This document shows, piece by piece, positions 7,278-25,685 of a stretch of 64,000 nucleotides of DNA. Each line of letters starts with the position of its first letter. The first letter of the stretch is position 1. Made by a program: the position numbers and the translations under genes. The DNA is from a virus (Duplodnaviria; Caudoviricetes): the IMG/VR virus record IMGVR_UViG_2841096034_000001; one strand, written 5' to 3'. The notes under the pieces were generated by a model. That model saw only the letters and a program-made list of their open reading frames with translations. It did not search any database and was not told the DNA's origin.

Positions 7278-9878
7278 TTATTTATAACCCCTAGCAATAA
7301 TTTCAGGATCACCCTTCTCTAATGCAACTTGTAGGCTATGCTTATAAACATGCTTTTTTTCTCTTATTTTTGAATCACGATTTAAGGATTTCCGATAGAC
7401 AAACTTTTGTTTTAGCACATTTTTTCGTTGATTATAATAAAGAATAAATCTGGCTAATGGTGCTTGATCATTGGAATTTCGCCATATAATTTTGAAGCTC
7501 TTCATTCCTTCCCACTCTTCTACACTTAGCATTTTACATAATAAATTTAATTGCAATAAGTTAAATTCAGCATTTATGTTAACTTCTCTTGAAAGAATTA
7601 ATTTAGTTTCATCGATAAATGGTTCCTGAACAACAGTAAAAGTAGTTATTGTCCTCAATTGGTGTATAAATTGCTCAAACGTACATATTGGAAATCTAGC
7701 TTCTAGAAAGTTTTCAAAATCTGTTTGTTTGACGTGCAAATTCAGTTTATTTAAGTGATTTTGGATTTGCTCCCAAAAGTCTCTATAGGTTTCTCTGATG
7801 GGATACACATGTTGATGTATCTTTTTTAGATGTAGAGCTAATTCTTTCTTTTGCATCCGAACTTGATCATAGTTATCCTCGCTTGCTAATAGGTATTCCT
7901 TTGCAACGATACTGGATAATAACTTCGTTACTATATCTCGTACTTCCATACTTTCTCCATCTAAAATATTCATCTCACAATAACTTTCCATTGTTTTCGC
8001 AATGTCTAAGTTCTCTTGAATTAAATCCCCTGTACTGATAAAGCCAGTATCAACATCATATAGCTTCCATAAGAATCCATTATAAATTGCTATATTTTTT
8101 ATTAGTATCTCGTTATTAACTTTTTCTAAATAGTCCCGCGAGTGTATACCTCTATGGAACTTCTTAATAAACCGCTTCATTCTTTTCTCTAATAGCTTTA
8201 CATCCATTTCTTTTATAGTAATTTCATTATTACCGGAGGGTGGGGTTTCCTGCTTCACATCCATCGGTTCCTCACTAGTGTTTTGAAAATGTCGATTCAG
8301 TGCACGGATTAAATTAGTAAAGACATCTACCCCACCAATAACCCCATAAGATTTTACTGGTTCCTCTGTCGATACATAATAATCGTCTAAATTATCACTA
8401 ATGTGTTCCTTATCCCCACGTAATTCTGCTTGTTGGTGTATGTTTGTAGAGCCCCTTTGTTGATTCGCTTGTTCAATATCGTCTTCTGTTAGTATTAACC
8501 GATTATTCAAATCATCTAGCAAACCCACAAGTGTTTGATACTCTTCCAAATTTGAATCTTTTTCTAAATAATGGTATGGCGAATCCTTCATATTAGCAAA
8601 GGTCTTCAACAACATCTGGGTATCATGATACCAACCAACACATTCTAGGACTTGATTCGGTGTTGTAATCAAAATATCAAAAGTTTCTTTTAATTTGTCT
8701 AAATTACGGTCGAACACATAAGTGTAGTAGGATTCAACCTGATCAATCTTCTTTCCTTGTGCGGCACAAACATGAACCTGATCGATTGATATGGTCGATT
8801 TTAGCTTTATGGTCAGCTTGTTTTGATCCAATACGCCCTCAATAAATTGAATCGTTTGTTTTTGCTGTTCCTGATTTGCCTCTTCCGGCATAAGTTCAAA
8901 CAAGTCAGTTAAAGGAACAAAATTAAATTCTTCGTCAAAAAAAGAATCGAACTTACCCTTTGGTCCTTTCTCCGCAATAACCGCTTCCGTATTACCGTCC
9001 GCACTTGTTTGTAACAAAGCCTGGCGACTACAGTTGGCACTTCCATATACAATGACCTCTTCCTGCTCACCAATAAATCGAAAAACTTTTCCATGATACC
9101 TTTTATGATTATCCTCTGTGAAATTCACTTCATACAAATCAAACCTCGAATCATCCTTTTTAGTTAATGGGAAATTCGTAGTTTTGTTTTGTAAATAGAT
9201 CGAAACCTTTTCAGGGTTATATTTTTGATGCCAATGATTAATAACTGCAAGGGATTGATCAAAGTATGGTGTCATGCAATCAATTCGTTTAATTACTTCT
9301 GGTAAGATCTCACTTAATTGATCTTGTATTGACCTCTCAAGATTCATGAACATCGATAGTGCATTATTTTCCCGATTAAAGTTATTTAAATAGTAAAAAG
9401 TCTGTAGTTGAGCCATCAATTCTTCCATCAATTTATTATTACTTGGCTTCGTTTGCCAAAACATACTTAAAGCAGCATTAATGATGTGAAGATGATCTTT
9501 ATTTCTTCCAACCTCATAGGTGAATACGTTGAATAATTCTTTGTTCGTTATAAATCCAGAAGGGGTTAAATTGCCACTACCAATAATCAGCTTTGCCTTT
9601 TTTTCACCTAATAACAAATACACTTTTGGATGAAAAGCATGATTAGTTTCCATTGGTGTTACCAGATAACTTTTTCCGAGTTCGGTGATATTTGGATGTT
9701 TAACCGAGTCTTGTAAACTATTATGATCAATAAAGAGCCCAATATATGTACAACCATTATCTAACAAATGACGCAGAATCATCTTTTCAAAAAAAACTAA
9801 ATCTGTGGAAAAGGATGAAAATAGTGCGACCTTATATCCGTTATGTTTCAACTCTTCTAGTATGTTAATCTTATCCAC
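7278..9878 (-). CDS. Large tandem phospholipase D-superfamily (HxK) nuclease-like protein; candidate defence
   Basis: Two motifs FHPKVYLL..GSGNLT and YHGKVFRF..GSANCS; long helical C-terminus. Confidence 0.75.
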   Translation of the reverse strand: MDKINILEELKHNGYKVALFSSFSTDLVFFEKMILRHLLDNGCTYIGLFIDHNSLQDSVKHPNITELGKSYLVTPMETNHAFHPKVYLLLGEKKAKLIIGSGNLTPSGFITNKELFNVFTYEVGRNKDHLHIINAALSMFWQTKPSNNKLMEELMAQLQTFYYLNNFNRENNALSMFMNLERSIQDQLSEILPEVIKRIDCMTPYFDQSLAVINHWHQKYNPEKVSIYLQNKTTNFPLTKKDDSRFDLYEVNFTEDNHKRYHGKVFRFIGEQEEVIVYGSANCSRQALLQTSADGNTEAVIAEKGPKGKFDSFFDEEFNFVPLTDLFELMPEEANQEQQKQTIQFIEGVLDQNKLTIKLKSTISIDQVHVCAAQGKKIDQVESYYTYVFDRNLDKLKETFDILITTPNQVLECVGWYHDTQMLLKTFANMKDSPYHYLEKDSNLEEYQTLVGLLDDLNNRLILTEDDIEQANQQRGSTNIHQQAELRGDKEHISDNLDDYYVSTEEPVKSYGVIGGVDVFTNLIRALNRHFQNTSEEPMDVKQETPPSGNNEITIKEMDVKLLEKRMKRFIKKFHRGIHSRDYLEKVNNEILIKNIAIYNGFLWKLYDVDTGFISTGDLIQENLDIAKTMESYCEMNILDGESMEVRDIVTKLLSSIVAKEYLLASEDNYDQVRMQKKELALHLKKIHQHVYPIRETYRDFWEQIQNHLNKLNLHVKQTDFENFLEARFPICTFEQFIHQLRTITTFTVVQEPFIDETKLILSREVNINAEFNLLQLNLLCKMLSVEEWEGMKSFKIIWRNSNDQAPLARFILYYNQRKNVLKQKFVYRKSLNRDSKIREKKHVYKHSLQVALEKGDPEIIARGYK

Positions 9879-11415
9879 TTAGTTTCACCTCACCTAAAGG
9901 TGTTACATGATAGACGCGCTTTTTTTGCGTAATTAAGCCAAGGTCTTCTAAAATACTCAATCCTTGATATACACGAAACGTATTATATACAGGGGTATCT
10001 TCGGCAATTAGGTATAGCTTGCCATTGTTCTCAGTAAAGTGATACGTCTCATTATTAGTCGTAATCATTTTATTTAAAGCAACTTTTTGATGTTGATCAA
10101 GAATATAATAATTTAAAATATAACTAATAAACTTGCTTACTGGTTTAGTCTTGTGTCCTTCTATCAACGATGTCCAACTTTGAAAAGAAATACTATCTCT
10201 TCCACCAAGGCGAAGCAATTCATAATGAAAATCCTGAAAGTCGGCTCGATTTTGTAACCGCAGATTTACATCTAACATGATTAGTAAGGGCTGCCACAGA
10301 TGATTTTTCACACTTTTTTCTTGTTCTTCCATATGTTTGAGAAATGTTTCACGCCTATCATATGGAAATGAAAGATCATTTTCCAGATCTTTAACCGTCT
10401 GTTGTAAATCATAGCCCTGCTCACTTAATTCCACTAACACCGCAGAAATTAGTTCCGCTTTTGTGAATACTCTTTTGGACATTTTATCTAAAAGATACGT
10501 CCATATATTTAGGAGACTATAAGTGAAAAATTGTCTCGCCTGATAAATTTCCCAACCAATAGCAACTTCGTTCACTCCAGCTTGTAAGTTTATTTTATTA
10601 TGATAAAAGCTATCATACATGTGATGTTGCCAATCTTGAATCGATACTTTCTGCCCGTTAAAGTGGTTAATTAAAATCATGTAATAAAGAAGTGAATCTC
10701 TCCGCCATTCCCCTTTTGGGCTTTTGGGTTGTTCTGGCATAAACATGTTTGTGAGTAGTTTTCTATCCTTTGAGGAAGCATCTAATGATGCTAAAGCAGC
10801 AACTTTACCATATTCAACTAAGACTTCTCTTGGGACATTTATATCTTGCTTTCTATATGTTTTATAATACGTAGTATCTTTTACGTTAAGCTCAAACGCA
10901 TCGGCTAACTCTTTTCCAAAAGGTGTTAACCTATCAATGTTAACACCTTTTTTTGCATCACCAGCTTTGGTGACCCCCATTATCTTCATTACGTTTCGAT
11001 ACGTCCCATATCCTCCAAATGGATCCTTTACATACTTTGTATCAACAGAAAATCCCTGTTGATCCGAATTCCATACTTTATATCCATGGGTACTTCCAAT
11101 CACACTATTAATAGTTCCTTCTCGTTCTTCAGCTTCTGCAATGTTTGCTAGAATATAATACCATTCTTGTTTTTTTAAATAAGTTTTAAAATTTTGTACT
11201 GACTTTTTATCCGGCACATTTTCAATAAAATCTTTCAGTACCCATGCGAAGAACGACCAATATCTCGCCCTAGGGGTGATGCTAGTAATTCCAGATTGCA
11301 ATGTATCCGCAATTGAAATCCCAACATAAAGAATCCCCAAATGGTCTTCCCCATTAATCGTCCTGAAATTATTTGTTGTCCACCTTGGGCCTTGTGTCAT
11401 TTGTACAGTGGTCAC
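9871..11415 (-). CDS. Partner of PLD protein (DUF6361-like N-terminus); candidate defence
   Basis: GEDHLG..ADTLQSGITSITPRARYWSFFAW motif; C-terminal wHTH-like LEDLGLI..YHVTPLG; 8-nt overlap with PLD gene. Confidence 0.55.
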   Translation of the reverse strand: MTTVQMTQGPRWTTNNFRTINGEDHLGILYVGISIADTLQSGITSITPRARYWSFFAWVLKDFIENVPDKKSVQNFKTYLKKQEWYYILANIAEAEEREGTINSVIGSTHGYKVWNSDQQGFSVDTKYVKDPFGGYGTYRNVMKIMGVTKAGDAKKGVNIDRLTPFGKELADAFELNVKDTTYYKTYRKQDINVPREVLVEYGKVAALASLDASSKDRKLLTNMFMPEQPKSPKGEWRRDSLLYYMILINHFNGQKVSIQDWQHHMYDSFYHNKINLQAGVNEVAIGWEIYQARQFFTYSLLNIWTYLLDKMSKRVFTKAELISAVLVELSEQGYDLQQTVKDLENDLSFPYDRRETFLKHMEEQEKSVKNHLWQPLLIMLDVNLRLQNRADFQDFHYELLRLGGRDSISFQSWTSLIEGHKTKPVSKFISYILNYYILDQHQKVALNKMITTNNETYHFTENNGKLYLIAEDTPVYNTFRVYQGLSILEDLGLITQKKRVYHVTPLGEVKLSG

Positions 11416-11635
11416 CTCTCTATATTGTAGGAAAGTAAATCTATTATAATTTTAGCACAATCTTAGGAACAGAGATGTTGTCACAGAGTACTAGAGATAC
11501 TGTACATCAATTGATCCTAATCGTCCTCTTTAACGGAACAAACAACGCAATCCAATCTTCCTGAATTGCGTCCTTTTCTAACACTTCTTATTGCACTTAG
11601 ATAATTTAATGGAATTACCCAGTATTCAAATTTCA

Positions 11636-12946
11636 TTATAGAGGACGAACACTTCCTGATTTAAGACCAGAATTCACATTTCCATATACCTTTCTTATTT
11701 CTCTTTCGTTTTCTAATGCTGTATTCCATTTGGACAATAAGGTTTGAGCTATATAATTAAAATATTGCTCCACATGTGTCTCCATGTGATCTTTATAATC
11801 GTTAAAAGAATTATAGGTATTTATATATCTAAAATATGTTTCAAATAAAACTGCATCATCAAAATATGTATCAACTATAAAACAATAGGTTGAATCCTTA
11901 GGAAAAAAATACTCAGTCATCTTTTTCAATAAATTAAATTGCTTTTTATCTAATTGAAACCATTCATTAGACAGTAACTTTCTTTTTCCTGGATTATTTT
12001 TATCATACCTGTGTTCATTTGCTAATTTGGAAATATATTTTCCTGAAAGTACGACTAAAACATCTGAAATTCGAAGACCGACATGAGTAACAGAATCTTC
12101 ATTTTCTTTTATTGAGGGAATATCCAATTTTTTGAAGGGGTCTATGGGTATCCCTTCATCAAGAATCAGTTCTGCCGACTGGCTATCAAATTTATTATAA
12201 AAGTTCATTTCTGTAATCCACAAGTCAATGTCAAATGTCACCTTGTTCCAATCAAATGAGACTTCATTAAAAGGGGTATCTTGAATAAAATGCTTTGTTT
12301 TTCTAATCGTTTGTACTAACCTTTCATAATCCTGTATTTGGTACTTCATTCTTTGAATGTTCTTATTCTTTGTCACAAAAGCTGCCAGGTCTTTCTGAAT
12401 TTCCGTAAGAACTTCTCTATTTCCCTTATACTTATCAAAGATAGATTGAATTACACTATCACTGGCTTCAAGTTCCAAATATTTCACAAGAGAGTATTTA
12501 AAAAGTCGTGCCGATTCTATATATCTTTTTTCTTCTAATTTTAGGATCCACTGTGTCAATCTGTTGTCTGCAACTAGAGACATTTTATTTATAGTAAATA
12601 ATAAATTGTCAACGTGGTTCTCAAGAAGTATATCAAACAAGGAATTATAAAAATCTAGCTCACGATTTTTAAGACTCGCGATACCATACTTGAAATTCTT
12701 GGCCAAAATATCTTTTCCTTTTAATTCTTTATAGTCAGGTAAATTCCTTGAGGAAATATATTTCTTTTCTAACAATTTATAATTCTCTTCAATTTTATGG
12801 AGACTTTCCCTATTTATCTTAATTAAGTCAGCAACATAAACATACATGTTGTCACTTCCTAACCGAATTTTTTTCTCTTCATCATAGGGAGTCGTCATCC
12901 TAATTGTATCTTGGGGTCCTTTTTCATCAATATATAAGTAATGCAT
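11636..12946 (-). CDS. DUF3800-like (RNase H-fold) protein
   Basis: N-terminal YLYIDEKG, central LILDEG, and DS..GLRISDVLV resembling the QxAD motif. Confidence 0.6.
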   Translation of the reverse strand: MHYLYIDEKGPQDTIRMTTPYDEEKKIRLGSDNMYVYVADLIKINRESLHKIEENYKLLEKKYISSRNLPDYKELKGKDILAKNFKYGIASLKNRELDFYNSLFDILLENHVDNLLFTINKMSLVADNRLTQWILKLEEKRYIESARLFKYSLVKYLELEASDSVIQSIFDKYKGNREVLTEIQKDLAAFVTKNKNIQRMKYQIQDYERLVQTIRKTKHFIQDTPFNEVSFDWNKVTFDIDLWITEMNFYNKFDSQSAELILDEGIPIDPFKKLDIPSIKENEDSVTHVGLRISDVLVVLSGKYISKLANEHRYDKNNPGKRKLLSNEWFQLDKKQFNLLKKMTEYFFPKDSTYCFIVDTYFDDAVLFETYFRYINTYNSFNDYKDHMETHVEQYFNYIAQTLLSKWNTALENEREIRKVYGNVNSGLKSGSVRPL

Positions 12947-13074
12947 TTTTTCATCCTTTCATATCAGATTAAAATACTTTTTCCCTATTTAAAACCTAAT
13001 CCATTTTTAGACACCTATCATTCACGTCTTAAAAAATATAAATTTCATTAAAAGATAAACATAATCGAAGTTAT

Positions 13075-13320
13075 ATGAATTTTTAATGTAGTACCTATTT
13101 AAACGGCTAGCTCCATTGCCATTTTTAAGCGCTCCCAAGATTTTGTCTTACTCTTTCATGTGTTTATACATTACATCATCGCAGCTACGCATATTTTGGT
13201 TAGGTCCAGGATAACCTCCAACTCTTATATGAAGTTCTTTTTAAGAAATTTCTAAAATTTCTCAAGGAAATAAAACAATCTACAATAAAATAGTTGAATT
13301 TCTTTTTGAAACTTAAACTC
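13075..13320 (-). pseudogene. Degenerate remnant of a small conserved protein (LHxRVGGYPG family)
   Basis: Manual translation LEIS*KELHIRVGGYPGPNQNMRSCDDVMYKHMKE*DKILG..GNGASRLNRYY with internal stops. Confidence 0.5.
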
Positions 13321-13321
13321 T

Positions 13322-15004
13322 CTAATGATTAATATCTTTAACTTTCTCTTTTGACCCCAACGCCTCTAAAGTATTATCAAAAGCATCCATGATTCTTTTA
13401 TCAATAAATTTTGGCCTCTTCATTGGGAAATTCCTTTGATATAAAAAATCTTTAAATGAAGTTAGAGGATTGTCAAAAAATTCATTAACAATGTTAAATA
13501 TAGATCTTTTCTTAGAGATTAGGTAGCAAAGCGCTTCAAATTCTTCTATATCTAAATTCACAAAACCTTTAATTAAATCAGATTCCCTGACATCTTTAAG
13601 TTTATCTTTTACAAAATTTTCAAATGATCCTAGGCTGCGACATTTGTTTGTTGTTACTGAGAATATGTAAACTTCTTCAATGCTCTCTAGTTTATTTGAC
13701 ACAGTTGTTTCTATAATTTCTGTAATGGATTTAAATGCTTGTTGAACTGGCTCAATATTCATTTTGTTAAAATCTTTTTTTATAGTTACTTCATCACCTT
13801 GTAAAAAAGATGCTGCCCGTACTCTTCTGTTCTTTACTTCAAAAACAGCTAGTTTATTTCCAAGTTTAATCATGACATCGGGAGATTTTTTTGAATTGTT
13901 CTCTCCATAATTAAACTCCTCAATAAATTCATAGTGTCCTAACTTAGATTGATTTACACTCTCTTCACCTAAAAGGGCAGCATATTCTTCAAAAGGTCTT
14001 CCTAGAAATCCAAGTATTTTATCATCATTATACATTTGTCTCACTTTAAAGAAGAAGGATTCATAAACTTTATCCTCTAAAAATGGTGTACACACTGGAA
14101 AGTAACATTCATTACTATACTTAAATAACGGTTTTATCTGAAACAACGAAAAATCCCATGGGTTATGAATAGTCTTCATCGCCCATTTTTTTGCATCCGA
14201 ATAACTAAAGGAAAGTTCGTTAACTACTTTCACTCCAGTCGTATCTAAATGGGTATTATGATAATAATTTATAGGATTTATAAGCACTGGTTCATTTGTC
14301 GATTTTTTATCTGAACTTAAAAACTTGCTTATTAGAGATGTTATGATTGAAAAATATTCCTTCATAGAATAAGGGTTTAATTTTTCAAAATCTGATTGAA
14401 TGTCTATGAATTCTTTCTTATTATACCTGCTCTCATCAGCAGCTAAATCTAGATATATATATGAAGATCTACCTAATGAAGCGAATACTTCAGGTCTGTT
14501 ATTAAAATAAATATTTCTAATTAGTTCAATTTCTAAAGATTTGGACTCATCTCTATATAAGGTGTCTCCAATTTTAGCGAATAAGGAAATGACGCTACCT
14601 ATTAAATCGTTTTCTGATAAATTAGAGGATTTCTTTAACATTTCTTCAGTACCATATGCAAAAATGTATTTCCACAAAGTTAAAATACATTGATAATTTA
14701 ATATAGTTCTACTAGCTATAACTGATGCTGCTCTTTGTGTTAAAAGTCCTTTCTTCTTTAAATAAAATAAATAACTTCTTTTTATGTCTGGATCCATCTT
14801 ATCAAGATACTGTAACCTAGATAAAAGTAAAATAGTGTCTTGCAAAGGCTTATTCTCGATAGCATTCTTTATACTTTCTTCCTTACCTTTGATTCCAAAC
14901 AGTTCACTATAAGTTAGGTAAACTGAAATGTTACTTTTATTTAATTTTCTCATTAGTTCACATCCTTTTTTTATTTCTGTAATTTCAATGTTTATTTGGC
15001 ACAC
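13322..15004 (-). CDS. Protein with C-terminal PD-(D/E)xK nuclease domain; candidate defence (likely start ATG 14953)
   Basis: GRPFEEY...SPDVMIKLGNKLAVFEVK restriction-endonuclease-like motif; AT-rich. Confidence 0.65.
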   Translation of the reverse strand: MCQINIEITEIKKGCELMRKLNKSNISVYLTYSELFGIKGKEESIKNAIENKPLQDTILLLSRLQYLDKMDPDIKRSYLFYLKKKGLLTQRAASVIASRTILNYQCILTLWKYIFAYGTEEMLKKSSNLSENDLIGSVISLFAKIGDTLYRDESKSLEIELIRNIYFNNRPEVFASLGRSSYIYLDLAADESRYNKKEFIDIQSDFEKLNPYSMKEYFSIITSLISKFLSSDKKSTNEPVLINPINYYHNTHLDTTGVKVVNELSFSYSDAKKWAMKTIHNPWDFSLFQIKPLFKYSNECYFPVCTPFLEDKVYESFFFKVRQMYNDDKILGFLGRPFEEYAALLGEESVNQSKLGHYEFIEEFNYGENNSKKSPDVMIKLGNKLAVFEVKNRRVRAASFLQGDEVTIKKDFNKMNIEPVQQAFKSITEIIETTVSNKLESIEEVYIFSVTTNKCRSLGSFENFVKDKLKDVRESDLIKGFVNLDIEEFEALCYLISKKRSIFNIVNEFFDNPLTSFKDFLYQRNFPMKRPKFIDKRIMDAFDNTLEALGSKEKVKDINH

Positions 15005-15613
15005 TCATACCTATAGAGTATTGAAATCTAATAGGTGCTGATAACAAAATCACTATTCATTTCAGTAATGTTATTTATAGTTCCGTAAATTTCTTCCCCT
15101 TTTAAAATTTTTTAAATTTAATTCCTCAATCAAAATAAATCTCTTCTTACAATTTTGTAATGTTTAATTAGGTATATTTTAACATTATCTTGAAATCAAG
15201 TCTTTAAGATAACTACCCTATTCTTGAAGATAGTTTCGAGATATTTTCCCTATTATAAAATACCAATTATTTCAAATTAATCTCTTATTAACCTCTTTCC
15301 CAAAATAGCTGGATTTTCATCTTTAACGTCCGACCAAGTAACACTTTAACTGGTCGATAACCACCTCTTCTGTATCATCATCTCCAAAGTATTTCACCAA
15401 CTTATTGAATTGTAAGCAATATGTTTTCACATTTAGTAACGAACTGCTTCTGATAGGAGCACCTTCTATCACTCTCCAAAACTATGAACCTTTATTTCAT
15501 TAAGGTTCATAGTTTTGGAGAGGAATTCCTATACTTTAGGCATTTATATAAAAAGAAATCTTAATTCCCTTTATCTTTCACCTACATTTATATCCAATTA
15601 TTGTAATTATATG

Positions 15614-15642
15614 TTGAATAATAGAACGCACGTTCGTATAAT
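15614..15642 (+). promoter_or_regulatory. SigA promoter with LexA (SOS) box in the spacer
   Basis: TTGAAT 15614-19, 17-bp spacer, TATAAT 15637-42; AGAACGCACGTTCG at 15623-36 matches the Firmicute CGAAC-N4-GTTCG consensus. Confidence 0.85.
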
Positions 15643-15664
15643 GCTTGTAAGGATGGTGATTAGT

Positions 15665-16177
15665 TTGAGATTTCCTTACTATACAACAACAATTCTAGAA
15701 GATTTAATAACTCAGTGGTATAAAATTCACAAATTTACAGAGCCCAATGATTTAAATGTTTACAGCATTGGAACAGAGTCACAAATCTTTGTCACTTGTA
15801 GACCTACTCAAGCTAGTTACATGAAAGTAGGAAAGTTTCAAGAAATTGTCTTGGATAGTCGCCTACCATATATACAACAACGAGAGCAATTCTTCCATGA
15901 GCTTTGCCACGCAATAAGGCATGCAGGTCGCCAATCTATCATGCCATATTCTTTTTACGAACTTCAGGAAAGAGACGCCAGGCACTTTACTCTCTATGCC
16001 TCGCTTCCCATCCATATGATTAATGAATATAACATTGCTAGCCCAGCAATTGTTGACCAGTTATCGCAAGATTTTATGATTCCAAAGAACATTTGTATTG
16101 AACGCTTAGAAAAGATTAAGAATCGAATTGTACCATCCGTTAGACCTCAATTCTTTAATATAAAAAAGGAGGGATAA
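15665..16177 (+). CDS. immA: ImmA/IrrE-family metallopeptidase (anti-repressor)
   Basis: EQFFHELCHAIRHAG (HExxH) and downstream ERDA; true start likely TTG 15665 after the SOS promoter and SD, not 15515. Confidence 0.85.
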   Translation: MRFPYYTTTILEDLITQWYKIHKFTEPNDLNVYSIGTESQIFVTCRPTQASYMKVGKFQEIVLDSRLPYIQQREQFFHELCHAIRHAGRQSIMPYSFYELQERDARHFTLYASLPIHMINEYNIASPAIVDQLSQDFMIPKNICIERLEKIKNRIVPSVRPQFFNIKKEG

Positions 16178-16179
16178 AT

Positions 16180-17358
16180 ATGGCTAATTTCCGAAAAAGA
16201 GGGAGTAAATGGTACTTTCAAATATATACAGGTATAGATCCATCCACTGGGAGAAAGAAGTTCACATCTAAAGGAGGATTTAAGACTAAAAAGGAAGCTC
16301 AGATGGCCGCAGTTGAAGTAGAAAAGGAAGTATTTGAAAACACATATGTTCAAGAGCAAAATATTACCTTTCAAGAATTTACTTTAGAGTGGATTAAGAA
16401 TTATCGTGAAACCGCCAAAATTAGTTCTGTTAGAAACCGGCAGCAAAACTTGGATCACTTAAACAGATTTTTTGGAAATAAAAAAATAAAAGATATCACG
16501 CGTAAACAGTATCAAGCCTTGCTTGCTTCGCTGCATAATGCAGGCTACGCTTTTAATACTTTGGATGGCATTCATGCAACAGGTAGAATGGTCTTTAGGA
16601 AAGCTGTGGAATTTAACATAATTAAGGACAGTCCTTGCGACTTTGCAAAAATTCCACGCAAAGTGGAAACCGTTGAGGAGGTTGAGAGCAGTAAAGGTGA
16701 GATTAAATTTATGGAAAAAGAAGAACTTATTCGTTTTCTTAATGCTGCAAAGGAAAGTGGCATCGATAAAGACTACCCCATGTTTTTGACACTTGCTTAT
16801 AGTGGATTACGAGTAGGGGAGCTTATCGCATTAAAATGGTCGGATATAGATATGGATAAAAAAACCTTAAGAGTAACCAAAACTTATTACAACCCCAACA
16901 ATAGTACAAAAGAGTATCAATTACTGACTCCCAAAACTAAAGGATCGATCAGAACGTTAAAAATGGACGCTGGAGTTATTGAGGTCCTCCAAAAACACAA
17001 GGAACACCAGGATTATCTCATTGAAAAGATGAAGAACGAGTATACTCAACTGGATTTTGTTTTTGCTAAGGAAGTTCAGAACCTTGGATACCCTGAATTT
17101 TTAAAGACCGTAAACACCCATATGAGACGTTTATTAAAAATTAGTGGCATCGATAAGGAACTTACCCCTCACTCCTTGCGACACACCCACACCTCTCTAT
17201 TAATTGAAGCAGGAGTAGGAGTTAAGGAAATTCAGCAACGATTAGGTCATGGAGATATAAACACAACCATGAATATATACGCGCACATTACTGAAAACAT
17301 GGAAGAAAAAGCCTCCCAAAAGTTCAGTGAACTTATGAGAGGCTCATTAGATTTATAG
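16180..17358 (+). CDS. int: Tyrosine integrase
   Basis: N-terminal arm-binding domain; catalytic GLRVGE, PKT, HSLRH, LGH, IYAH all intact. Confidence 0.95.
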   Translation: MANFRKRGSKWYFQIYTGIDPSTGRKKFTSKGGFKTKKEAQMAAVEVEKEVFENTYVQEQNITFQEFTLEWIKNYRETAKISSVRNRQQNLDHLNRFFGNKKIKDITRKQYQALLASLHNAGYAFNTLDGIHATGRMVFRKAVEFNIIKDSPCDFAKIPRKVETVEEVESSKGEIKFMEKEELIRFLNAAKESGIDKDYPMFLTLAYSGLRVGELIALKWSDIDMDKKTLRVTKTYYNPNNSTKEYQLLTPKTKGSIRTLKMDAGVIEVLQKHKEHQDYLIEKMKNEYTQLDFVFAKEVQNLGYPEFLKTVNTHMRRLLKISGIDKELTPHSLRHTHTSLLIEAGVGVKEIQQRLGHGDINTTMNIYAHITENMEEKASQKFSELMRGSLDL

Positions 17359-17373
17359 TGTTTTCCCCGCCAG

Positions 17374-17433
17374 GTATGTCAAAAGTATGTCAATTTGACT
17401 TAAGGGGTGAAGCTAAACCCTTGATATCAAGGG
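17374..17433. repeat. Probable arm-type sites of ICE integrase plus inverted repeat
   Basis: GTATGTCAA direct repeats at 17374-82 and 17385-93; palindrome CCCTTGATATCAAGGG 17418-33. Confidence 0.6.
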
Positions 17434-17447
17434 TCATGGGGGCATGA

Positions 17448-17465
17448 TTACATCATGCCGCCCAT
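17448..17465 (-). other. groEL: Attachment-site core: duplicate of the groEL 3' end
   Basis: Minus strand ATGGGCGGCATGATGTAA = MGGMM*, the typical GroEL C-terminus, isolated in non-coding DNA; imperfect dyad GGCATGA-TTACA-TCATGCC. Confidence 0.85.
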
Positions 17466-17580
17466 ACTTGAGCGGACTTTCCCTCACTTTTCATCTCCTT
17501 GAATTCCCCTAAAAATCAATTTACCACACCCCCGAATTCAGAAAATACATTCATATGTTTTCGGTAAACTTTTTCGATTC

Positions 17581-17612
17581 GTGAGGTTTTCTGTGAGGTT
17601 ACAAAACCTCAC
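17581..17612. repeat. Probable arm-type sites of the prophage integrase
   Basis: GTGAGGTT at 17581-88 and 17593-600, inverted copy AACCTCAC 17605-12. Confidence 0.6.
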
Positions 17613-17708
17613 ACATATAACACAAAAAAATGGTAACCTTGAAATAGTGAGAGAAGCTCTCCCTTTAATACAAGCTACTACATTTTTTTATGTTATTTAA
17701 ATCTTATT

Positions 17709-17738
17709 AAAAAAGACCTCTATATTTAGAGGTCTTTT
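17709..17738. terminator. Terminator after moron operon
   Basis: AAAAAAGACCTCTA-TATT-TAGAGGTCTTTT. Confidence 0.75.
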
Positions 17739-18063
17739 ACAATACAGTGCCTATCGTTACTAAAGAACCCACCATACCTATAGAATCCTTTATCCATCCC
17801 CAATATTTTTTTGCTTTTTCCTTATCATGTTCTCTTAAAGCAACTCTCATTTTTTCATAATGCCCCAGAACCTCTTCTTGTTCTTTTTCATTATTGGTAT
17901 GCTCTATTATTTCATCCTTTAAATTATTTAATGTTTCTTCGGATACACCATGGGCATATTCGAAGTGCTGATCTATTTCCTTAGCTTCTACTTCACTTTC
18001 ATCACCCTGATTCACACCTGCTAAGTTACCTGTATTATTTAAATTTCTGCTATTATCATGCAC
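17737..18063 (-). CDS. Small protein with N/G-rich N-terminal motif and hydrophobic C-terminal helix; also the -1 frame extension of the upstream ORF
   Basis: Own SD GAGGGTG before GTG 18063; frame is open upstream to the A10 tract at 18215-24. Confidence 0.75.
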   Translation of the reverse strand: MHDNSRNLNNTGNLAGVNQGDESEVEAKEIDQHFEYAHGVSEETLNNLKDEIIEHTNNEKEQEEVLGHYEKMRVALREHDKEKAKKYWGWIKDSIGMVGSLVTIGTVL

Positions 18064-18188
18064 CTTATAGTCACCCTCAATATAGTTAATTGTTAAACCT
18101 ACTCCTAATTCTTTTAGGTGCTGGAGAGCACCGCTATCCTTTGAAAAGGCAGCAAGTGACGGTGGATCGTCTATTGAACTCTTTTCTT

Positions 18189-18590
18189 TTAGAGAGCTTT
18201 TAGCAGACTTGGGCTTTTTTTTTTAGATTCTCTAATATCTTGTCTATAGTGTCCACTTATAGAAAACACTGGAAATATTATATTTTCATTAATCAATATT
18301 TCCCTTTCACATTCGCATTCAACATATTGACCGATAAATTGGTCAATATCATCAGTTCTTAAGATAAGGGAATTACATTCGTAGTCATCACAACGAATTT
18401 CCCATTCGAGTTTCAAGCGTCCATCTAATGTTAACTTTAGGAGATATTCAAAAACTGTGTTTAAAGGAAGATCAGTAGCTTTGCTGACAATTGTTGGATA
18501 AAACCTTTTGACACGGGAATACGCTATTTCTTCAATAACATTTTCAATTTTACGTTTATCCTGATAATGTAACTCTGCCACCACCTCCAC
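18189..18590 (-). CDS. wHTH plus zinc-ribbon protein ending at a slippery A10 tract
   Basis: CDDYEC and CECE cysteine pairs; TCT AAA AAA AAA AGC near the 3' end. Confidence 0.75.
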   Translation of the reverse strand: MEVVAELHYQDKRKIENVIEEIAYSRVKRFYPTIVSKATDLPLNTVFEYLLKLTLDGRLKLEWEIRCDDYECNSLILRTDDIDQFIGQYVECECEREILINENIIFPVFSISGHYRQDIRESKKKSPSLLKAL

Positions 18591-18593
18591 CTC

Positions 18594-19682
18594 CTAGTTA
18601 AACGTGGACAATATTACCTTGCTACGGACTTCCTCTATTACTTCTTCTGTAGTTTTATTCGACTTGAAGTATACTGACTTAGGTCTCACTCCGATGTTAA
18701 TCGAAAACTCTTGCCATACATTATTTACTTCGACTTGAAACTTAATATATCCTCCTGAAGTTTGCAGGTAAGGTCCGAGAAGATTGTAAAAGGGGGTATG
18801 ACGCAAATCCTTCTCATTCACCTTCAAACCCACATCACCCATTCCAGCGAGTATAATTGCAATAAATGGCGAAGTCAATAGTTCATCACCTAAAATGGAT
18901 TTTGCTTCTTCTAACTTTTGCTGCAGTGTATCAATATCATCGTATTCATAATATTCATCTATTGCCCCGAGAATATTTACTATCGTTTCATTTTCCTTCT
19001 CATTAAAAGTATCAATAAAAGTTTCAGGAAAAGCTTTTGATTCAGTAAACCTTCCATTGTGCAGCTGGTCAGCAATATCTTCAATCTTAGAACCATATGG
19101 TGCCAAAAAATTATATTTGTCCAAAGTAATTTGTTGATTAACATAGGAGGCAACTAAACCAGCTATTTTTAAAGCGTCATCAGGTTTATCACGGACCTCA
19201 ACCAAATTTTTCGTTTCATTAATATAGACTGTAGCCGTTTTTGTCGTAGGCAAAACTTCTATGTCCTCACCAATTATCCGCCTTGTGCCATCTTGATAAA
19301 TGAAACGAAGGTAATAGGAATCTTCATCAATCTCTGCTGCGCTCCTAAGTTTAGGATTTATAAGTTCCTCTTCCTTATAAGGAATTTTTTCATTGAAAGG
19401 ATTGTTTCTCTCACGTTCTATGATACCTTTTTTCAATCCCTCTAGGGAGTCGCAAGTAAACCATGAAACCGAGGTGTTCCCTGCAAAAACTTTATTATAA
19501 TGATTAAATAAAAAATCATGTTTCTCTCCAGAACTTTTTCTTTTCAAGTCACTCCATATATCCTTTGCTAGGTTGAAGGCTCTATCATTTGTATCAATAC
19601 TCATGGCTGTAGCTATTTCTTGTAAGTGCTTTTTTGGCAACTTTACAATATCGGCAAATGTAACGACATCAGCGATCCGCAT
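18594..19682 (-). CDS. Hypothetical moron protein, SAP/HeH-like N-terminus
   Basis: LPKKHLQEIATAMSIDTNDRAFNLAKDI; 3 bp from next ORF; AT-rich. Confidence 0.7.
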   Translation of the reverse strand: MRIADVVTFADIVKLPKKHLQEIATAMSIDTNDRAFNLAKDIWSDLKRKSSGEKHDFLFNHYNKVFAGNTSVSWFTCDSLEGLKKGIIERERNNPFNEKIPYKEEELINPKLRSAAEIDEDSYYLRFIYQDGTRRIIGEDIEVLPTTKTATVYINETKNLVEVRDKPDDALKIAGLVASYVNQQITLDKYNFLAPYGSKIEDIADQLHNGRFTESKAFPETFIDTFNEKENETIVNILGAIDEYYEYDDIDTLQQKLEEAKSILGDELLTSPFIAIILAGMGDVGLKVNEKDLRHTPFYNLLGPYLQTSGGYIKFQVEVNNVWQEFSINIGVRPKSVYFKSNKTTEEVIEEVRSKVILSTFN

Positions 19683-19886
19683 CCCAACTCCCCCTATATA
19701 TATCCAATGCTTCCAGACTAATACATATAAACATTTATGTAAATTTTTTCATAAGTTCCATCCAAATACAACAACAGTCCTGTGGAATTATTAAGCGGTT
19801 TTTACTGTTAGAGCGTAAAACAGACTCGACAAAGCTTTTTACTTTTATGCATCTATACTTCATGCAGTAATTGGAGAAGTATAGAA

Positions 19887-20228
19887 TTAAATTATGTGGA
19901 CATCCATAATATCGTCTACTTGGAATGAAGTATGAAGTTTATCCTGCAGCCCAATGCATTTTATTTTTCTATTCTGTGGATCCAAGTGCACCACTTTCAC
20001 TTTTTCATCAGAGTAATCAAACCCATTATGAAATCGGATCTCTACTGGCAAGTTATCTGTCAACGCTCTCTGGAGTTTGAAACCTATCTCTTCCCATTGC
20101 TGCTCATCCAGAATCGGCTTCTCAATACGCTCATCCTCTTTCCAGACTTGCTTGATCATTTCCACATGCTCCGGCAACATTAAGGATGTCCATTTGAGCG
20201 TACCTCGATCACGGTTGCGGTTATCCAT
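19887..20228 (-). CDS. yolD: YolD-like protein
   Basis: RDRGTLKWTSLMLPEH..KPILDEQQWEEI signature. Confidence 0.9.
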   Translation of the reverse strand: MDNRNRDRGTLKWTSLMLPEHVEMIKQVWKEDERIEKPILDEQQWEEIGFKLQRALTDNLPVEIRFHNGFDYSDEKVKVVHLDPQNRKIKCIGLQDKLHTSFQVDDIMDVHII

Positions 20229-20445
20229 TGACTACACCTTTCCTTTCTTTGTAAGGGTACACAGAAAGAATTCCGTTTTTACTGAACGAACGTACCTGAT
20301 TCCGGTTGTAACAATAAGCGAGAATATGATTTTCACGGACTTCTACAACGCGGATCTTCCGTTGAGTCATGTTTCCTTTTCCATCTACATAGATCATCTC
20401 CAGAATCTTCTTGGTATCAGCAGCACGATTCAATACTCCTATCAT
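20221..20445 (-). CDS. Small WYL-like protein
   Basis: EMIYVDGKGNMTQRKI..AYCYNRNQVRSF. Confidence 0.75.
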   Translation of the reverse strand: MIGVLNRAADTKKILEMIYVDGKGNMTQRKIRVVEVRENHILAYCYNRNQVRSFSKNGILSVYPYKERKGVVNG

Positions 20446-20466
20446 TTATCATCACTCCCTTTTATG

Positions 20467-20480
20467 CGAACGTTTGTTCT
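20467..20480 (-). promoter_or_regulatory. LexA (SOS) box upstream of WYL-like/yolD operon
   Basis: CGAACGTTTGTTCT. Confidence 0.8.
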
Positions 20481-20539
20481 GTTAATATATATGTTATCAC
20501 AACATCATTAGAAGTAAACTGGAAAATGGAGGAGTTAAC

Positions 20540-20752
20540 ATGCAGACCTTTAAGGATTTGGAGCTGGCGATTTTCCAAAATGATCATGCTCAAAAAATAA
20601 AAATGAATGAATTATGGTTGGAACAACAGATGATGATACACCCTGTGCTTGATATGAGTGGGGACCCTGTGATTTTATCCATGAACTTTATGGGAATACC
20701 TGTGGAGTTTAGTGAGGATATAGAGGATTTTGAGTTAGTAGTTGATACATAA
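20540..20752 (+). CDS. Small acidic hypothetical protein
   Basis: SD GGAGGAG; hairpin GGCTCCAGA..TCTGGAGCC downstream. Confidence 0.65.
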   Translation: MQTFKDLELAIFQNDHAQKIKMNELWLEQQMMIHPVLDMSGDPVILSMNFMGIPVEFSEDIEDFELVVDT

Positions 20753-20883
20753 AAAAGGCTCCAGAAATAATCTGGAGCCCTACCACCTATACCTATTCCG
20801 TGCATGTCTCTTACGTCTTTTTCTCTATTTAGATGGCGATACAATTATAACATTAGTTGTAATTATATGGTGGATGTGTTTTA

Positions 20884-21969
20884 TTATTCAATTTCAATTT
20901 CTTTTCCCATAGCATACTCCACTCCTCTTACTACAAGTGCTGCAGCTTCTGCTCGAGTAATTGTTTGGTTAGGATCAAACATCCCGTTACCAACTCCTAC
21001 AGATATACCAGCTGCTTTAGCTTTTGTGATTTCTTTCTGTAAGAGTGAATCCTTTTCTACGTCCTTAAATCCTGTCTCTTTCAAATTTTTCTCCATTTGC
21101 TTTTCATCCTCCTCCGCAGCAGTGTATTTGTCCATAGCTGCGTTTATGTGTTTTTGAGTGTTAGGTCCAAAAATTCCGTCCTCTTTAATCCCTTGCTCCT
21201 TCTGAAATGATTTCACGGCATCCTCGGTAGCTGGTCCATAAGATCCATCAAGCTCACCTTTATAATGACCCAGCTCTTTCAAATCACGTTGAGCCTCCAA
21301 TACTTTAGCGCCAGTATCGCCACGTTTTAGCCAGTTTTTCTCCGTAACATTGGCACCTTTCCAGGCGATATTAAAGTAATCGCAAATGCCTTGGCCATGT
21401 TCAGCAGCAGTTTCTATTTGATATGATTCTTTAATCATCAACAAAGCTTCGCGCCGGTCGTCCATAAAACCGTTTTCCGTCAATACGGCAGGCATGTTCG
21501 TTTCGCGCAACTCATGAAAATTATTCTCTTTATAACCCCGCCAGTCCTGTTTCGTTCCTTGCTTAAGATACTTTGCAATGCTGCGGGCCAGGTCCCCGCT
21601 CATATATTTCATATTTCCTAAATATACATGGGTGCTGATCCCGTCGGCTCTTGAGTAATCAAAATCAAAACTCATAGCGTTAAAATGAATGGATACGTAA
21701 ATATCCGCGTTGTGACGGTTAGCTGCGTTGGTTCTGTCTCTTAGCGAGGTGTCCTGGTCGGTAGGTGCGACTAACAAAACCCTAAATCCATGTGCTAAAA
21801 GTATCTCAGACAAGAAAGCTACCGTTTTCCTGTTGAATTCATTCTCTCGAATGGATCGGCCAAGCTCTGGAATGTAGGGCGTGCGTTTACCAGGGGTGCC
21901 TATACCATGCCCGTCACTCAATGCTACGGTTTTACCATTCCATATTTCTGGATATAACATTTTAGCCAT
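20884..21969 (-). CDS. Endolysin: Amidase_3 + PG_binding_1 + SLH domain
   Basis: DGHG..RENEFN..SIHFNA..LTENGFM; LKRGDTG..DGSYGPAT..DGIFGP; GFKDV..FDPNQTITRAEAA. Confidence 0.92.
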   Translation of the reverse strand: MAKMLYPEIWNGKTVALSDGHGIGTPGKRTPYIPELGRSIRENEFNRKTVAFLSEILLAHGFRVLLVAPTDQDTSLRDRTNAANRHNADIYVSIHFNAMSFDFDYSRADGISTHVYLGNMKYMSGDLARSIAKYLKQGTKQDWRGYKENNFHELRETNMPAVLTENGFMDDRREALLMIKESYQIETAAEHGQGICDYFNIAWKGANVTEKNWLKRGDTGAKVLEAQRDLKELGHYKGELDGSYGPATEDAVKSFQKEQGIKEDGIFGPNTQKHINAAMDKYTAAEEDEKQMEKNLKETGFKDVEKDSLLQKEITKAKAAGISVGVGNGMFDPNQTITRAEAAALVVRGVEYAMGKEIEIE

Positions 21970-22215
21970 TTACTTCAGCCCCTTTTTTTGAAGTTCCCTT
22001 TTCTGCTTCTTGGCTTTCTTACTGACGTAAGTGTTTTTCCAAACCGAATAAACCCCCACCACTAACATCCCAAAAGCGATAATGACCGTCACAAATGCAC
22101 TAATACTAGCTTCCGTAAGCCACTCATATCTGATATTAAGAGTGGCCAAAAATGCCATGACAGCTGTCAAAAAACCACCTACAAGTGTTGCTACATCTTT
22201 GATTTGCTCTTTCAT
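21970..22215 (-). CDS. Holin (SPP1-like)
   Basis: Two TM helices, WKNTYVSKKAKKQK tail; adjacent to endolysin. Confidence 0.85.
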   Translation of the reverse strand: MKEQIKDVATLVGGFLTAVMAFLATLNIRYEWLTEASISAFVTVIIAFGMLVVGVYSVWKNTYVSKKAKKQKRELQKKGLK

Positions 22216-23345: not shown

Positions 23346-25685
23346 TTATGGAAACTCGACGACGAACCATTGAATGAAGTAGCGCTGACCTGAATCGCCC
23401 CTGCGTACATTTAATGTAGTAGCGTCTGTAAGTTCCAGGGCCCACTCGACGTCCGCCCCGTCCAATCCAGACGAATAAAGGCTTTCACTGTAAAAGACCG
23501 CGGCCTTATTCATGTCTACCGCAGAAATAGTAACGTTTAAAGCGCTTAACGTCGTATCAATATATCCGCTTTGTACGTTCACACCATCCTGGAATTCGAT
23601 GACTTCCCAGGAAAAGTACCTTTGGGTATTGTAGTTATTCGCTGATGATAACTCAATTTCGCTTGAGGTATTAAATTTGGCTAATACCTTAGTTTTTTGG
23701 ATCGTCGCTGTGGATGCATCGCTTGTATGAAAACCCTTTGGCAAGACAATCGATTTACTTAAGTCCACAGGGCTTATAGTTACAATACGGGAATAACCAG
23801 ACCCTGAATTATTTCCACGCTGCACGCTCTTGATCGCGCTTGTCGTGATTCCGTTTACCCCGTCCGTCAGTTCCTGGAAGGTCGGTATTCCGTCACTGTC
23901 AGCGTCCGCGACTGTTCCACCTTTGCCAATAACGGCGTCGCGGACCTGTTGTTTCCCGTTACTGACAGATTGCTTTAAATCGACGCCATCCACAGTTACA
24001 GAAGCGAAGGAAACGTCGGCGCCTTGATTCGCGATCTCCGCCCAAGGACGCCACCCATTATTATCACTAAATCGATGGAATATTTTATTTGTCGTCACGT
24101 CCATGAATAGCTGCTTTTTATAAGCAGAAGTATATACCTGCTGTATAAGGTACCCATTTGATCCCGAAGGCGATCCGTTTAAATTGCCATTTGAAAGGTA
24201 ATAGAATCCCGCCCCGTTTGGTACGTTATCGACATGGTAGTCGATCCGCTTTGCCTGGGTACCTAAACCATATGATTCTGCCCAGTCTTGCACAGCATTG
24301 GCTTTCGCCTGGGCGCCTGCGGTTGTTTCCTGTTCTTTCCACGGTTCCCAAACATCTGACGCCTTTGTTCTAGTATAAACCCTGTTCATTCCAGAAGTAG
24401 GATAAACCCCGATAGCCACCTGAGAAGCAGCCGTTTTTGATACTTTTATATGAATTATGGAATAGGTGTCTGTCGTAGGCGCGTTTACTAGGTCAAAACC
24501 GTCGTAAAATCCTGTATTATCAAGAGTGTCTACATCCGTTTGCTGTGCCAGCTGCTTCGTATCAGACCCTAATCCAAAACTTTTCGCCCAGTCTTGCACA
24601 GCATCGGCTTTCGCCTGGGCGCCTGCCGTTGTTTCAATCGTCTTTTTATCCCAGGTTATCGGGTCCCCCGCGGTCATTGTAGCGTTGGTACTTTCCCATA
24701 CTTGAGAACCACTATGATGCCCTGTTTTTATAACAGTCGCCTTTACATTACTACGCTCGAAGGTCCATTCCCCAGTATCTTCGTCATGTTTAGCGTTATG
24801 CGCTATATAGGTCCCGTAATCTAGCGTAGTACCGTCACCCTGGTACTTCATCCATCCCAGCGCGCCGTAGACCCCTATGCGACCATGCCAGATACGGGCG
24901 TCTGTTTCTAAGTCACCTGTCATTTTGTCGCCTGACTTATGGACGACTTCGCTGTCGACGGCGATCTTTGCCCACTCGTTCCAAGTGCCATTAACTTTTG
25001 TTCTCATATAGTTGTCTTGATTATGAAGGTCAATGTAAATCTGACTCGCATAATCCATTCCAGGATGATGCTGATGGATAAGATAACCTGCGGCTGTCGG
25101 TTGATTTGTTGCGTCAGTTCCTATATAGAAAAACCCGTTGGTAGTGACATTGTCTAAATTTCCCGTAAAGCGTGAAGGTGTGCCTAGACCCATGCTTTTC
25201 GCCCAGTCTTTGACTTCTGTCGCTTTCGTTTGTGCGCCTTCGGTTGTTTCCATTTGAACCCATGAGGACCATACCCCATTAGAACATATCCTCTTATACA
25301 TATTACCTACCGTACTTCCGCCCGAAGGGAAATAAACCTGTATTATATATGCGGTATCTATAGAAGTAACAATACAGAATCCGTTTGTATCGCCAGGTCG
25401 ATTAAGTGCTGCTGTTTGTCCATAGTAAAAACCCGACTTATAAAGATTGTTAAAATCACCTGAATATAGGTTTGCTGTTGTACCTAGCCCGAAGCTTTCA
25501 GCGTAATCTATCGCCGCTTGTTCGGCGTCATTCGCCTTCGTTTGGGCACCGTCTTTCGTTTCAACTGTTTGATCAATCTTTTCCCAGTTCTCATTCAACA
25601 TTGTGGTAACATTAAAATACATTTCATCTTTGGGATCTTCACTTGTTACCATGTAGAGGTCAAGGTTATTTGTATTATTCGGCAC
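23346..25685 (-). CDS. Tail fibre with repeated knob modules
   Basis: N-terminal MLNENWEKID anchor; repeated ETTxGAQxKA..WAxSxGLG linker plus GFY..W..W knob domains. Confidence 0.85.
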   Translation of the reverse strand: MPNNTNNLDLYMVTSEDPKDEMYFNVTTMLNENWEKIDQTVETKDGAQTKANDAEQAAIDYAESFGLGTTANLYSGDFNNLYKSGFYYGQTAALNRPGDTNGFCIVTSIDTAYIIQVYFPSGGSTVGNMYKRICSNGVWSSWVQMETTEGAQTKATEVKDWAKSMGLGTPSRFTGNLDNVTTNGFFYIGTDATNQPTAAGYLIHQHHPGMDYASQIYIDLHNQDNYMRTKVNGTWNEWAKIAVDSEVVHKSGDKMTGDLETDARIWHGRIGVYGALGWMKYQGDGTTLDYGTYIAHNAKHDEDTGEWTFERSNVKATVIKTGHHSGSQVWESTNATMTAGDPITWDKKTIETTAGAQAKADAVQDWAKSFGLGSDTKQLAQQTDVDTLDNTGFYDGFDLVNAPTTDTYSIIHIKVSKTAASQVAIGVYPTSGMNRVYTRTKASDVWEPWKEQETTAGAQAKANAVQDWAESYGLGTQAKRIDYHVDNVPNGAGFYYLSNGNLNGSPSGSNGYLIQQVYTSAYKKQLFMDVTTNKIFHRFSDNNGWRPWAEIANQGADVSFASVTVDGVDLKQSVSNGKQQVRDAVIGKGGTVADADSDGIPTFQELTDGVNGITTSAIKSVQRGNNSGSGYSRIVTISPVDLSKSIVLPKGFHTSDASTATIQKTKVLAKFNTSSEIELSSANNYNTQRYFSWEVIEFQDGVNVQSGYIDTTLSALNVTISAVDMNKAAVFYSESLYSSGLDGADVEWALELTDATTLNVRRGDSGQRYFIQWFVVEFP

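Follow-up and report, generated by a model that had tools for sequence, protein, structure and literature searches.

The operon and its A10 run

The DNA analysed here is a stretch of 64,000 nucleotides from a virus (Duplodnaviria; Caudoviricetes; IMG/VR record IMGVR_UViG_2841096034_000001), referred to below as the window, and our subject is a small operon on its minus strand that carries a run of ten A residues (A10) within its second gene. The first gene of the operon, open reading frame 1 (ORF1, 18594-19682), encodes 362 amino acids with a SAP-like N-terminus and a body of predicted RdgC/RexA-type fold. The second gene, ORF2 (18189-18590), read in its zero frame, specifies a short product of 133 amino acids composed of a winged helix, a four-Cys zinc ribbon, the tripeptide KKK and an unconserved tail of 10 codons. 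The A10 run (18215-18224) marks the boundary between this N-domain and a C-domain encoded further downstream. The junction of ORF2 reads GAA TCT AAA AAA AAA AGC CCA, and the ORF2 stop codon lies 10 codons beyond the run. In the -1 frame relative to ORF2, the T preceding the run and the first two A residues form a TAA, after which 160 codons are open up to the stop codon of ORF3. This C-domain frame (17737-18219, 160 codons plus stop) encodes, in order, a linker with the sequence PPSL, a hydrophobic strand, an N/G-rich stretch and a four-helix bundle. ORF3 as listed (17737-18063, 108 amino acids from a GTG start) is the 3′ two-thirds of the same frame. Either the addition of one A or a -1 shift at 18215-18224 would fuse ORF2 to the C-domain in a long isoform of approximately 284 amino acids.

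A hairpin followed by a U run (approximately 17705-17744, minus strand) lies after the C-domain stop codon and has the properties of an intrinsic terminator (-18.3 kcal/mol, z -5.9; none of 200 shuffles reached this stability); it was absent from the output of the consensus terminator scan. The 204-nucleotide intergenic region 5′ of ORF1 (19683-19886, minus strand) is the presumed site of the operon promoter, and a promoter scan of the window returned no more sites than were found in shuffled sequence. Besides ORF1, ORF2 and the C-domain frame, the ORF list of the window has no gene in the operon. The three minus-strand ORFs of 362, 133 and 108 amino acids, the A10 run, the open -1 frame leading into ORF3 and the operon's own terminator had all been pointed out in a preliminary description of the sequence, and all were found to be present.

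The A10 run is the single A/T run of at least 9 in the 64-kb window, where dinucleotide shuffles led us to expect 8.5. The 4.28-Mb genome to which the window belongs (GC content 42%) contains 38 such runs of at least 9 and 6 of at least 10, and the A10 run is among those 6. The tract is more than a chance occurrence.

Conservation of the run and of the frame behind it

The region and each of its products had no match among 50,697 phage records in nucleotide and tblastn searches, the ORF1 protein occurred in 1 of 61 genomes, namely the window's own (G000), and in none of its 60 relatives, and a locus search with ORF1 alone yielded no relatives in viral or genome contigs. ORF1 matches phrog_38742, a PHROG without assigned function, over its full length (E 2.2e-39), and a search of 401 genomes of the phylum with this PHROG identified 5 that carry the ORF1 family, the window's own included. 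In all four of the others, ORF1 is followed by an ORF2 homologue and then by an ORF3-like frame, and an A9 or A10 run lies at the end of the ORF2 domain. A probe independent of the tract was provided by a degenerate DNA pattern, FYP...WE[IV]RC, which represents two ORF2 motifs located about 250 nucleotides upstream of the run. The pattern scan gave 65 loci (7 in viral, 28 in genome and 30 in metagenome contigs), in 30 of which the N-domain was recognised by a hidden Markov model (HMM); the remaining 35 were chance matches. Subtraction of 4 duplicates left 26 loci, which together with the 4 PHROG-derived loci and the window make up 31 distinct loci (individual loci are denoted by L numbers). 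In every locus examined, ORF2 was immediately preceded by an ORF1 homologue. Strains of Bacillus velezensis and B. sonorensis are among the carriers of the cassette.

An A-run was found at the domain boundary in all 31 distinct loci, with A9 in 18, A10 in 10 and A8, A11 and A12 in one each. The run is kept in diverged loci with ORF1 identities as low as 23-35%, and also in L007, where the cassette genes have a GC content of 51% and yet A10 is found within one ORF of 283 amino acids reading GCA AAA AAA AAA GCC. The nearest relative of the window, L029, which comes from another species and shares 77% identity in ORF1, likewise has A10 and the -1 layout. Exactly one frame is open over a long distance (114-184 codons) after the run in each locus. 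The C-domain is encoded in the -1 frame in 23 loci, the window included, and in the +1 frame in 3 (L004, L063 and L067), whereas 4 loci (L007, L021, L049 and L070) are natural zero-frame fusions of about 283 amino acids; L028 is cut by the end of the locus. In all 26 split loci the C-domain frame is open back to the run and overlaps the ORF2 tail by 5-32 codons.

An HMM of the C-domain that was built from natural fused proteins only matches the shifted frame from a few residues past the run. In the window, the alignment to this HMM begins at residue 21 of the frame and the first ATG, GTG or TTG is found at residue 53, a gap of 32. Among the 22 split loci with an HMM match, homology begins upstream of the first of these start codons in 16, and by at least 10 residues in 10. 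The position of the first start codon varies among relatives from residue 7 to residue 59 after the run, and an alignment of the relatives shows that a P-V/I-S-L motif is conserved within the start-less stretch. These observations bear on the earlier proposal that ORF3 has its own Shine-Dalgarno (SD) sequence and GTG start and gives a separate product that is nucleated by the fusion protein. The GAGGGTG sequence and the GTG at 18063 do exist, but no start codon is conserved there in relatives; homology to the C-domain starts right after the run. ORF3 might still be initiated on its own, but conservation does not support a separate product. The proposal that the A-tract is a slip site joining the zinc-ribbon ORF to the downstream module fared better, the run being present in 31/31 loci, the frame behind it open in 26/26, and fusions of about 283 amino acids existing naturally; all of this strongly supports a conserved site of slippage, and does so for a whole family.

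A full HMMER scan with ORF2 (E <=1e-3) returned 150 cluster representatives of bimodal length, 114 of them short (66-175 amino acids) and 36 long (208-306 amino acids). A KK or longer K-run at residues 95-150 was present in 92 of the 114 short forms and in all 36 long forms. In the short forms, the stop comes a median of 11.5 residues after the K-run, and the tails are unconserved and resemble out-of-frame translation. A predominance of one continuous ORF among homologues, which would have pointed to a homopolymer error in the window, was not seen, as the split form is in the majority.

Codon usage at the boundary provides a further line of evidence. The boundary lysines are encoded by AAA throughout the 31 loci, whereas elsewhere in the same genes the ratio of AAA to AAG is 602:269 (69% AAA). 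The probability of three AAA codons in each of 31 loci is approximately 1e-16 if the loci are independent, a value that is overstated since the loci are related. Because the boundary lysines are all AAA as compared with 69% elsewhere, and because the runs extend past the codons, we conclude that the run appears to be under selection at the nucleotide level, beyond what the protein needs. The sister loci L044 (A9, phase 0) and L056 (A10, phase 2) differ in the length of the run, and a change in the codon next to it preserves the -1 layout in both. The run is preceded by T in 25 of the 31 loci (p ~1e-4) and followed by C or G in 29; in phase-0 loci, this T creates a TAA in the C-domain frame right at the edge of the run.

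Decoding of the run

Standard decoding of ORF2 would give a protein of about 130 amino acids, a winged helix with a zinc ribbon, that ends shortly after KKK. A one-base slip would instead give about 284 amino acids by adding a flexible N/G-rich linker and the four-helix bundle. We think it probable that conserved slippage on the A-run produces both the short winged helix/zinc-ribbon protein and the long form with the four-helix bundle. The slippage is inferred to operate at the RNA level, so that both isoforms would be made, and it is most likely transcriptional: RNA polymerase would add one A on the homopolymer, the alternative being a -1 ribosomal slip or sliding on A_AAA_AAA. In this way, the second gene of this accessory operon, which has two genes and is carried by temperate phages and mobile elements of Bacillota, would yield two N-terminally coincident proteins, and the tract would set the ratio of the isoform that only binds DNA to the isoform that also carries the bundle. 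The lengths of the run are in the range of the RNA-DNA hybrid (about 8-9 or more), with A10 in the window and a mode of A9 among the 31 loci. In a reporter system, shifting of 10%, 40% and 63% is given for A7, A9 and A11, respectively (PMC3711429), and the tau and gamma products of Thermus thermophilus dnaX are attributed to transcriptional slippage on A9 (PMC5009743).

The question is then which machinery slips, if any, and whether the split arrangement could have another origin. Programmed -1 ribosomal frameshifting of the dnaX/insertion sequence (IS) type on A_AAA_AAA/G could take the place of polymerase slippage. The canonical slippery heptamer A_AAA_AAA is contained in every run of the 31 loci, exactly a -1 change is needed in 23 of the 26 split loci, and SD-like motifs are mildly enriched upstream of the run (9 of 31 loci versus 27 of 186 control windows). 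No signal for a downstream RNA structure was detected, however, in the 60 nucleotides after the run (mean z -0.06 versus -0.03 in controls, Mann-Whitney p 0.65), and no run is shorter than 8, though 7 would be enough for the ribosome. Polymerase slippage is favoured because the shortest runs, 8-9, are close to the length of the transcription hybrid, because the three +1 loci are out of reach of a -1 ribosomal shift, and because the fused loci keep the run, with stop codons only 6-30 codons off in both other frames. Polymerase slippage would explain all three frame layouts by a single mechanism, and we consider the ribosomal alternative unlikely. The main rival scenario places the variation in the DNA: the run would be a contingency tract at which replication slippage toggles between a fused (ON) and a truncated (OFF) state, and the genomes would be snapshots of phase variation. 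Homopolymers of 9-12 are mutable in DNA, all three frame states occur in relatives (23 -1, 3 +1 and 4 zero) and are interspersed on the ORF1 tree, and the C-domain is intact in every state. Yet the states are skewed 23:3:4, with the supposed OFF state, -1, dominant over deep divergence, and the runs of -1 loci (A9-A12) are no shorter than those of fused loci (A9-A10). Close pairs (the window and L029, L013 and L015, L009 and L046, L010 and L066) are alike in both length and state, and the L044/L056 pair changed its run length while preserving the -1 layout. In a set of 5.8 billion proteins, the two most similar to ORF2 (69% and 67% identity) are both short, and no long form was found among close relatives. 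Phase variation is, moreover, compatible with slippage at the RNA level. We regard it as a rather improbable explanation of the split loci.

Two further scenarios dispense with slippage altogether. In one, the run merely encodes KKK, and ORF2 and ORF3 are separate genes, the latter being translated from its own or a non-canonical start or by termination-reinitiation. The SD-like GAGGGTG and the GTG of the window agree with this scenario, as do 6 of the 22 split loci with an HMM match, in which a start codon is located at or before the onset of homology, and L008, in which an ATG overlaps the ORF2 stop codon. It is difficult to reconcile with the exclusive use of AAA at the boundary and with runs that exceed the codons, with homology, including the P-V-S-L motif, upstream of the first canonical start in 16/22 loci, with a C-domain frame that is open back to the run in every split locus, and with the natural fusions; we judge it to have little chance of being correct. 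In the other, a single gene of 284 codons appears as two because of a homopolymer error in sequencing or a recent frameshift mutation. The window genome is a finished two-contig assembly, and the reading of A10 rather than A11 in this one strain comes from that assembly. An artefact or a dead gene is hard to square with the predominance of the split state (26/30 determinable loci and 114/150 protein clusters), which is found across many independent assemblies, including some with short-read-style contig names; the C-domain frame is free of stop codons over its 114-184 codons in all loci, and L029, from another species, repeats both the A10 and the -1 layout. We think it very improbable indeed that the split is an artefact. 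A CoiA-like competence gene outside the window is also split in the same genome, at a T9 run on its coding strand (G000:C1:951216-951224, L074). Its ORF of 250 amino acids stops 7 codons past the T9, and a second frame runs on for about 160 codons; this is the sole other homopolymer of at least 9 in the genome with such a two-frame junction signature.

Several of the observations above must be set against conserved RNA-level slippage. Besides the assembly-based A10 and the split coiA gene, these are the start-bearing loci, and in loci such as L008 the C-domain may be initiated independently or by coupling. KKK is also conserved at the protein level, and this accounts for some of the A-richness of the boundary. 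The loci are mutually related, and hence the counts are not independent; on the ORF1 tree, neither the fused nor the +1 state needs to have arisen more than once. Finally, DNA-level phase variation would likewise preserve an out-of-frame domain.

Predicted folds, genomic setting and known systems

The AlphaFold2 model of ORF1 (mean predicted local distance difference test score [pLDDT] 87.4, predicted TM-score 0.80) was matched by Foldseek to E. coli RdgC (E 2e-4, prob 1.0, TM 0.36-0.42), to CENP-N (E 9e-6) and Iml3/Chl4, to lambda RexA (8twq, E 3.6e-4, TM 0.21-0.25), and to RdgC-like phage and viral proteins. The paper on the RexA structure assigns RexA the same relatives, of the RdgC and Iml3/Chl4 type, and reports that solved members of this fold bind DNA as dimers (PMC11077077). 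We predict from the model that ORF1 has an RdgC/RexA-type fold without being a member of the RexA family. The TM-scores are low (0.21-0.42) and come from a predicted model. An hhalign comparison of the ORF1 profile with lambda RexA gave a probability of 0.2%, that is, no sequence relation; on this result, membership of the RexA family was rejected. Sequence searches did not link ORF1 to RdgC either, with 0 Pfam families at E <=1 and one chance-level match in NCBIfam. The preliminary description had taken ORF1 for a SAP-like DNA binder. The N-terminus is indeed weakly SAP-like; the body has the predicted RdgC/RexA-type fold. An Atlas feature search placed ORF1 near a cluster with GAPS4b_N in 11% of its members, which we treat as a lead only.

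For ORF2 and the C-domain, we used a natural fused homologue, the AlphaFold2 model of which has a pLDDT of 82.7. Residues 1-127 form a winged helix and a zinc ribbon (pLDDT 89-96), a linker follows, the N/G-rich residues 159-191 are of low confidence (pLDDT <50), and residues 195-280 form a four-helix bundle (pLDDT >90). Alignment of ORF2 homologues identified P32, C67, C92 and C94 as invariant or near-invariant. The earlier reading of ORF2 as a winged helix-turn-helix (wHTH) with a Cys ribbon agrees with the winged helix and four-Cys zinc ribbon seen in both the alignment and the model. The Foldseek neighbours of the N-domain are weak and comprise MarR/PadR-type regulators (wHTH), TFE-alpha and PF0610. 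An Atlas structure search of ORF2 gave a lead to DUF5939, on which a literature search found no paper. A PDB sequence search produced only chance-level matches (SAP-like, LysW-type ribbon, designed helical bundles), and neither Pfam nor NCBIfam has a family for any of the three products.

Two features previously proposed for the downstream module found no support. A membrane anchor at the C-terminus was considered and rejected: in the window the hydrophobic stretch spans no more than about 14 residues, in relatives it includes charged residues, and in the model it forms the fourth helix of a soluble four-helix bundle. The other is the amyloid motif. In BASS/RHIM pairs, a short amyloid motif is duplicated on two partners, one of which is an NLR-type sensor. 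Here, the N/G-rich stretch occurs in one copy on one polypeptide and merely has low confidence in the model, and there is no NLR partner, Pfam having no NACHT or NB-ARC match in the products of the operon.

In the window, the operon is flanked on one side by a YolD-like gene, an amidase and a holin that belong to a large prophage. On the other side are a tyrosine integrase in convergent orientation and an ImmA-like peptidase. An amidase gene is found just upstream of the operon in L008, L069 and L046, and an integrase or serine recombinase gene adjoins it in L029, L057, L020 and L040. Such a location at the border of a mobile element is typical of accessory genes ('morons'). An attachment site (att) had been supposed beside it, but the window has no tRNA, and no direct repeat has a copy in the interval between the integrase and ORF3 (17359-17736). 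The order of genes over 17359-22215 (lysis genes, YolD-like gene, cassette, convergent integrase) fits attP on a circular phage map and not the end of an integrated prophage. Other cassette neighbours among the relatives include an MrcB_N-HNH protein (type IV restriction-like), an LXG/colicin-DNase polymorphic toxin and an SNF2-family helicase (L020 5675-6922; L013 4489-6342; L026 1680-4391).

To the left of the cassette in the window are the tyrosine integrase (16180-17358) and the ImmA/IrrE-type M78 peptidase (15515-16177). The region 7278-17358 encodes, on the other strand, a protein of 866 amino acids with a PLD-nuclease (NgoFVII-like) N-terminus and three ORFs of 514, 436 and 560 amino acids without Pfam matches, and it may be a defence island or belong to another mobile element. 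Elsewhere in the window, in the prophage structural region, a minus-strand ORF of 779 amino acids (23346-25685) contains three diverged copies (71-100% identity) of a 68-nucleotide repeat at 24262-25250.

A role of the operon in phage exclusion or in the control of lysogeny is plausible. None of the families in PADLOC-DB 2.0.0 (2023) matched the three products at E <=1. The inference of a defence function is somewhat strengthened because ORF1 has the predicted RdgC/RexA-type fold and because the operon is positioned between lysis genes and an integrase, and this partner at a moron position makes the operon a concrete candidate for an exclusion or lysogeny-control module. One could envision a new and widespread two-gene phage-exclusion system of Bacillota mobile elements, in which a ring of RdgC/RexA fold senses foreign or damaged DNA and polymerase slippage on the A9-A10 run sets the ratio of the isoforms. 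The short wHTH/zinc-ribbon isoform would restrain the system, whereas in the rarer long isoform a four-helix bundle, attached via the disordered N/G segment, would execute the response by oligomerising or by attacking the membrane. If this were true, slippage-set stoichiometry would be the safety catch of an abortive-infection device. We put this forward as speculation that is more apt to be wrong than right by a wide measure.

Among known systems, lambda RexA/RexB resembles the cassette in being a prophage-encoded two-gene operon whose first product has an RdgC/RexA/Iml3-Chl4-type fold (predicted in the case of ORF1). Unlike RexA, ORF1 has an additional SAP-like N-terminus, the structural similarity is of low TM-score, and homology at the sequence level is lacking. 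Whereas RexB is a multi-pass membrane protein, the model of the partner shows a wHTH/zinc-ribbon protein to which slippage would add a helical bundle, and the operon is situated at the lysis/integrase end rather than in the immunity region. GAPS4 is described as consisting of GAPS4a, a PD-(D/E)xK nuclease, and the ring-forming GAPS4b, and as pairing a DNA-encircling subunit with an effector subunit (PMC13748975). Its link to ORF1 is the Atlas cluster, and the cassette, in contrast to GAPS4, has no nuclease domain detected by Pfam or NCBIfam.

With respect to decoding, the orfA/orfAB arrangement of IS3 and IS630 elements offers a parallel, in that a short DNA-binding product and a long two-domain product are related by a -1 change at an A-rich site that sets their ratio. 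The operon described here differs in having a four-helix bundle as its C-domain, no transposase domain in Pfam or NCBIfam searches, and no IS inverted repeats. To our knowledge, conserved programmed homopolymer slippage has been recognised in only a few bacterial gene families, among them dnaX, IS transposases and type III secretion genes. A literature search, which did not extend to the cluster lists in the supplement of Antonov et al. 2013, found no report of this family or of its slip site. If our interpretation is correct, it adds a slippage family of at least 150 clusters at 50% identity that resides on Bacillota prophages and mobile elements. Annotation pipelines call ORF2 and ORF3 separate hypothetical proteins and would thereby overlook the long product, and the gene models would be corrected.

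The closest likeness is to Thermus dnaX and Shigella spa13/mxiE, where, in the accounts that we draw on, a homopolymer of at least 9 in the coding region leads to two N-terminally coincident proteins without an RNA stimulator. The fused relatives, with A9-A10 and stop codons nearby in both other frames, share the arrangement described for Thermus dnaX, and the split relatives share that described for spa13 and for two-ORF dnaX. The decoding device would be a well-conserved new example of known homopolymer slippage. In contrast to dnaX and spa13, the present case concerns another, uncharacterised family on prophages and mobile elements, and the slippage is deduced from sequence. Both arrangements coexist within this family and both keep the tract, which would make it a natural system for studying how slippage sets isoform ratios.

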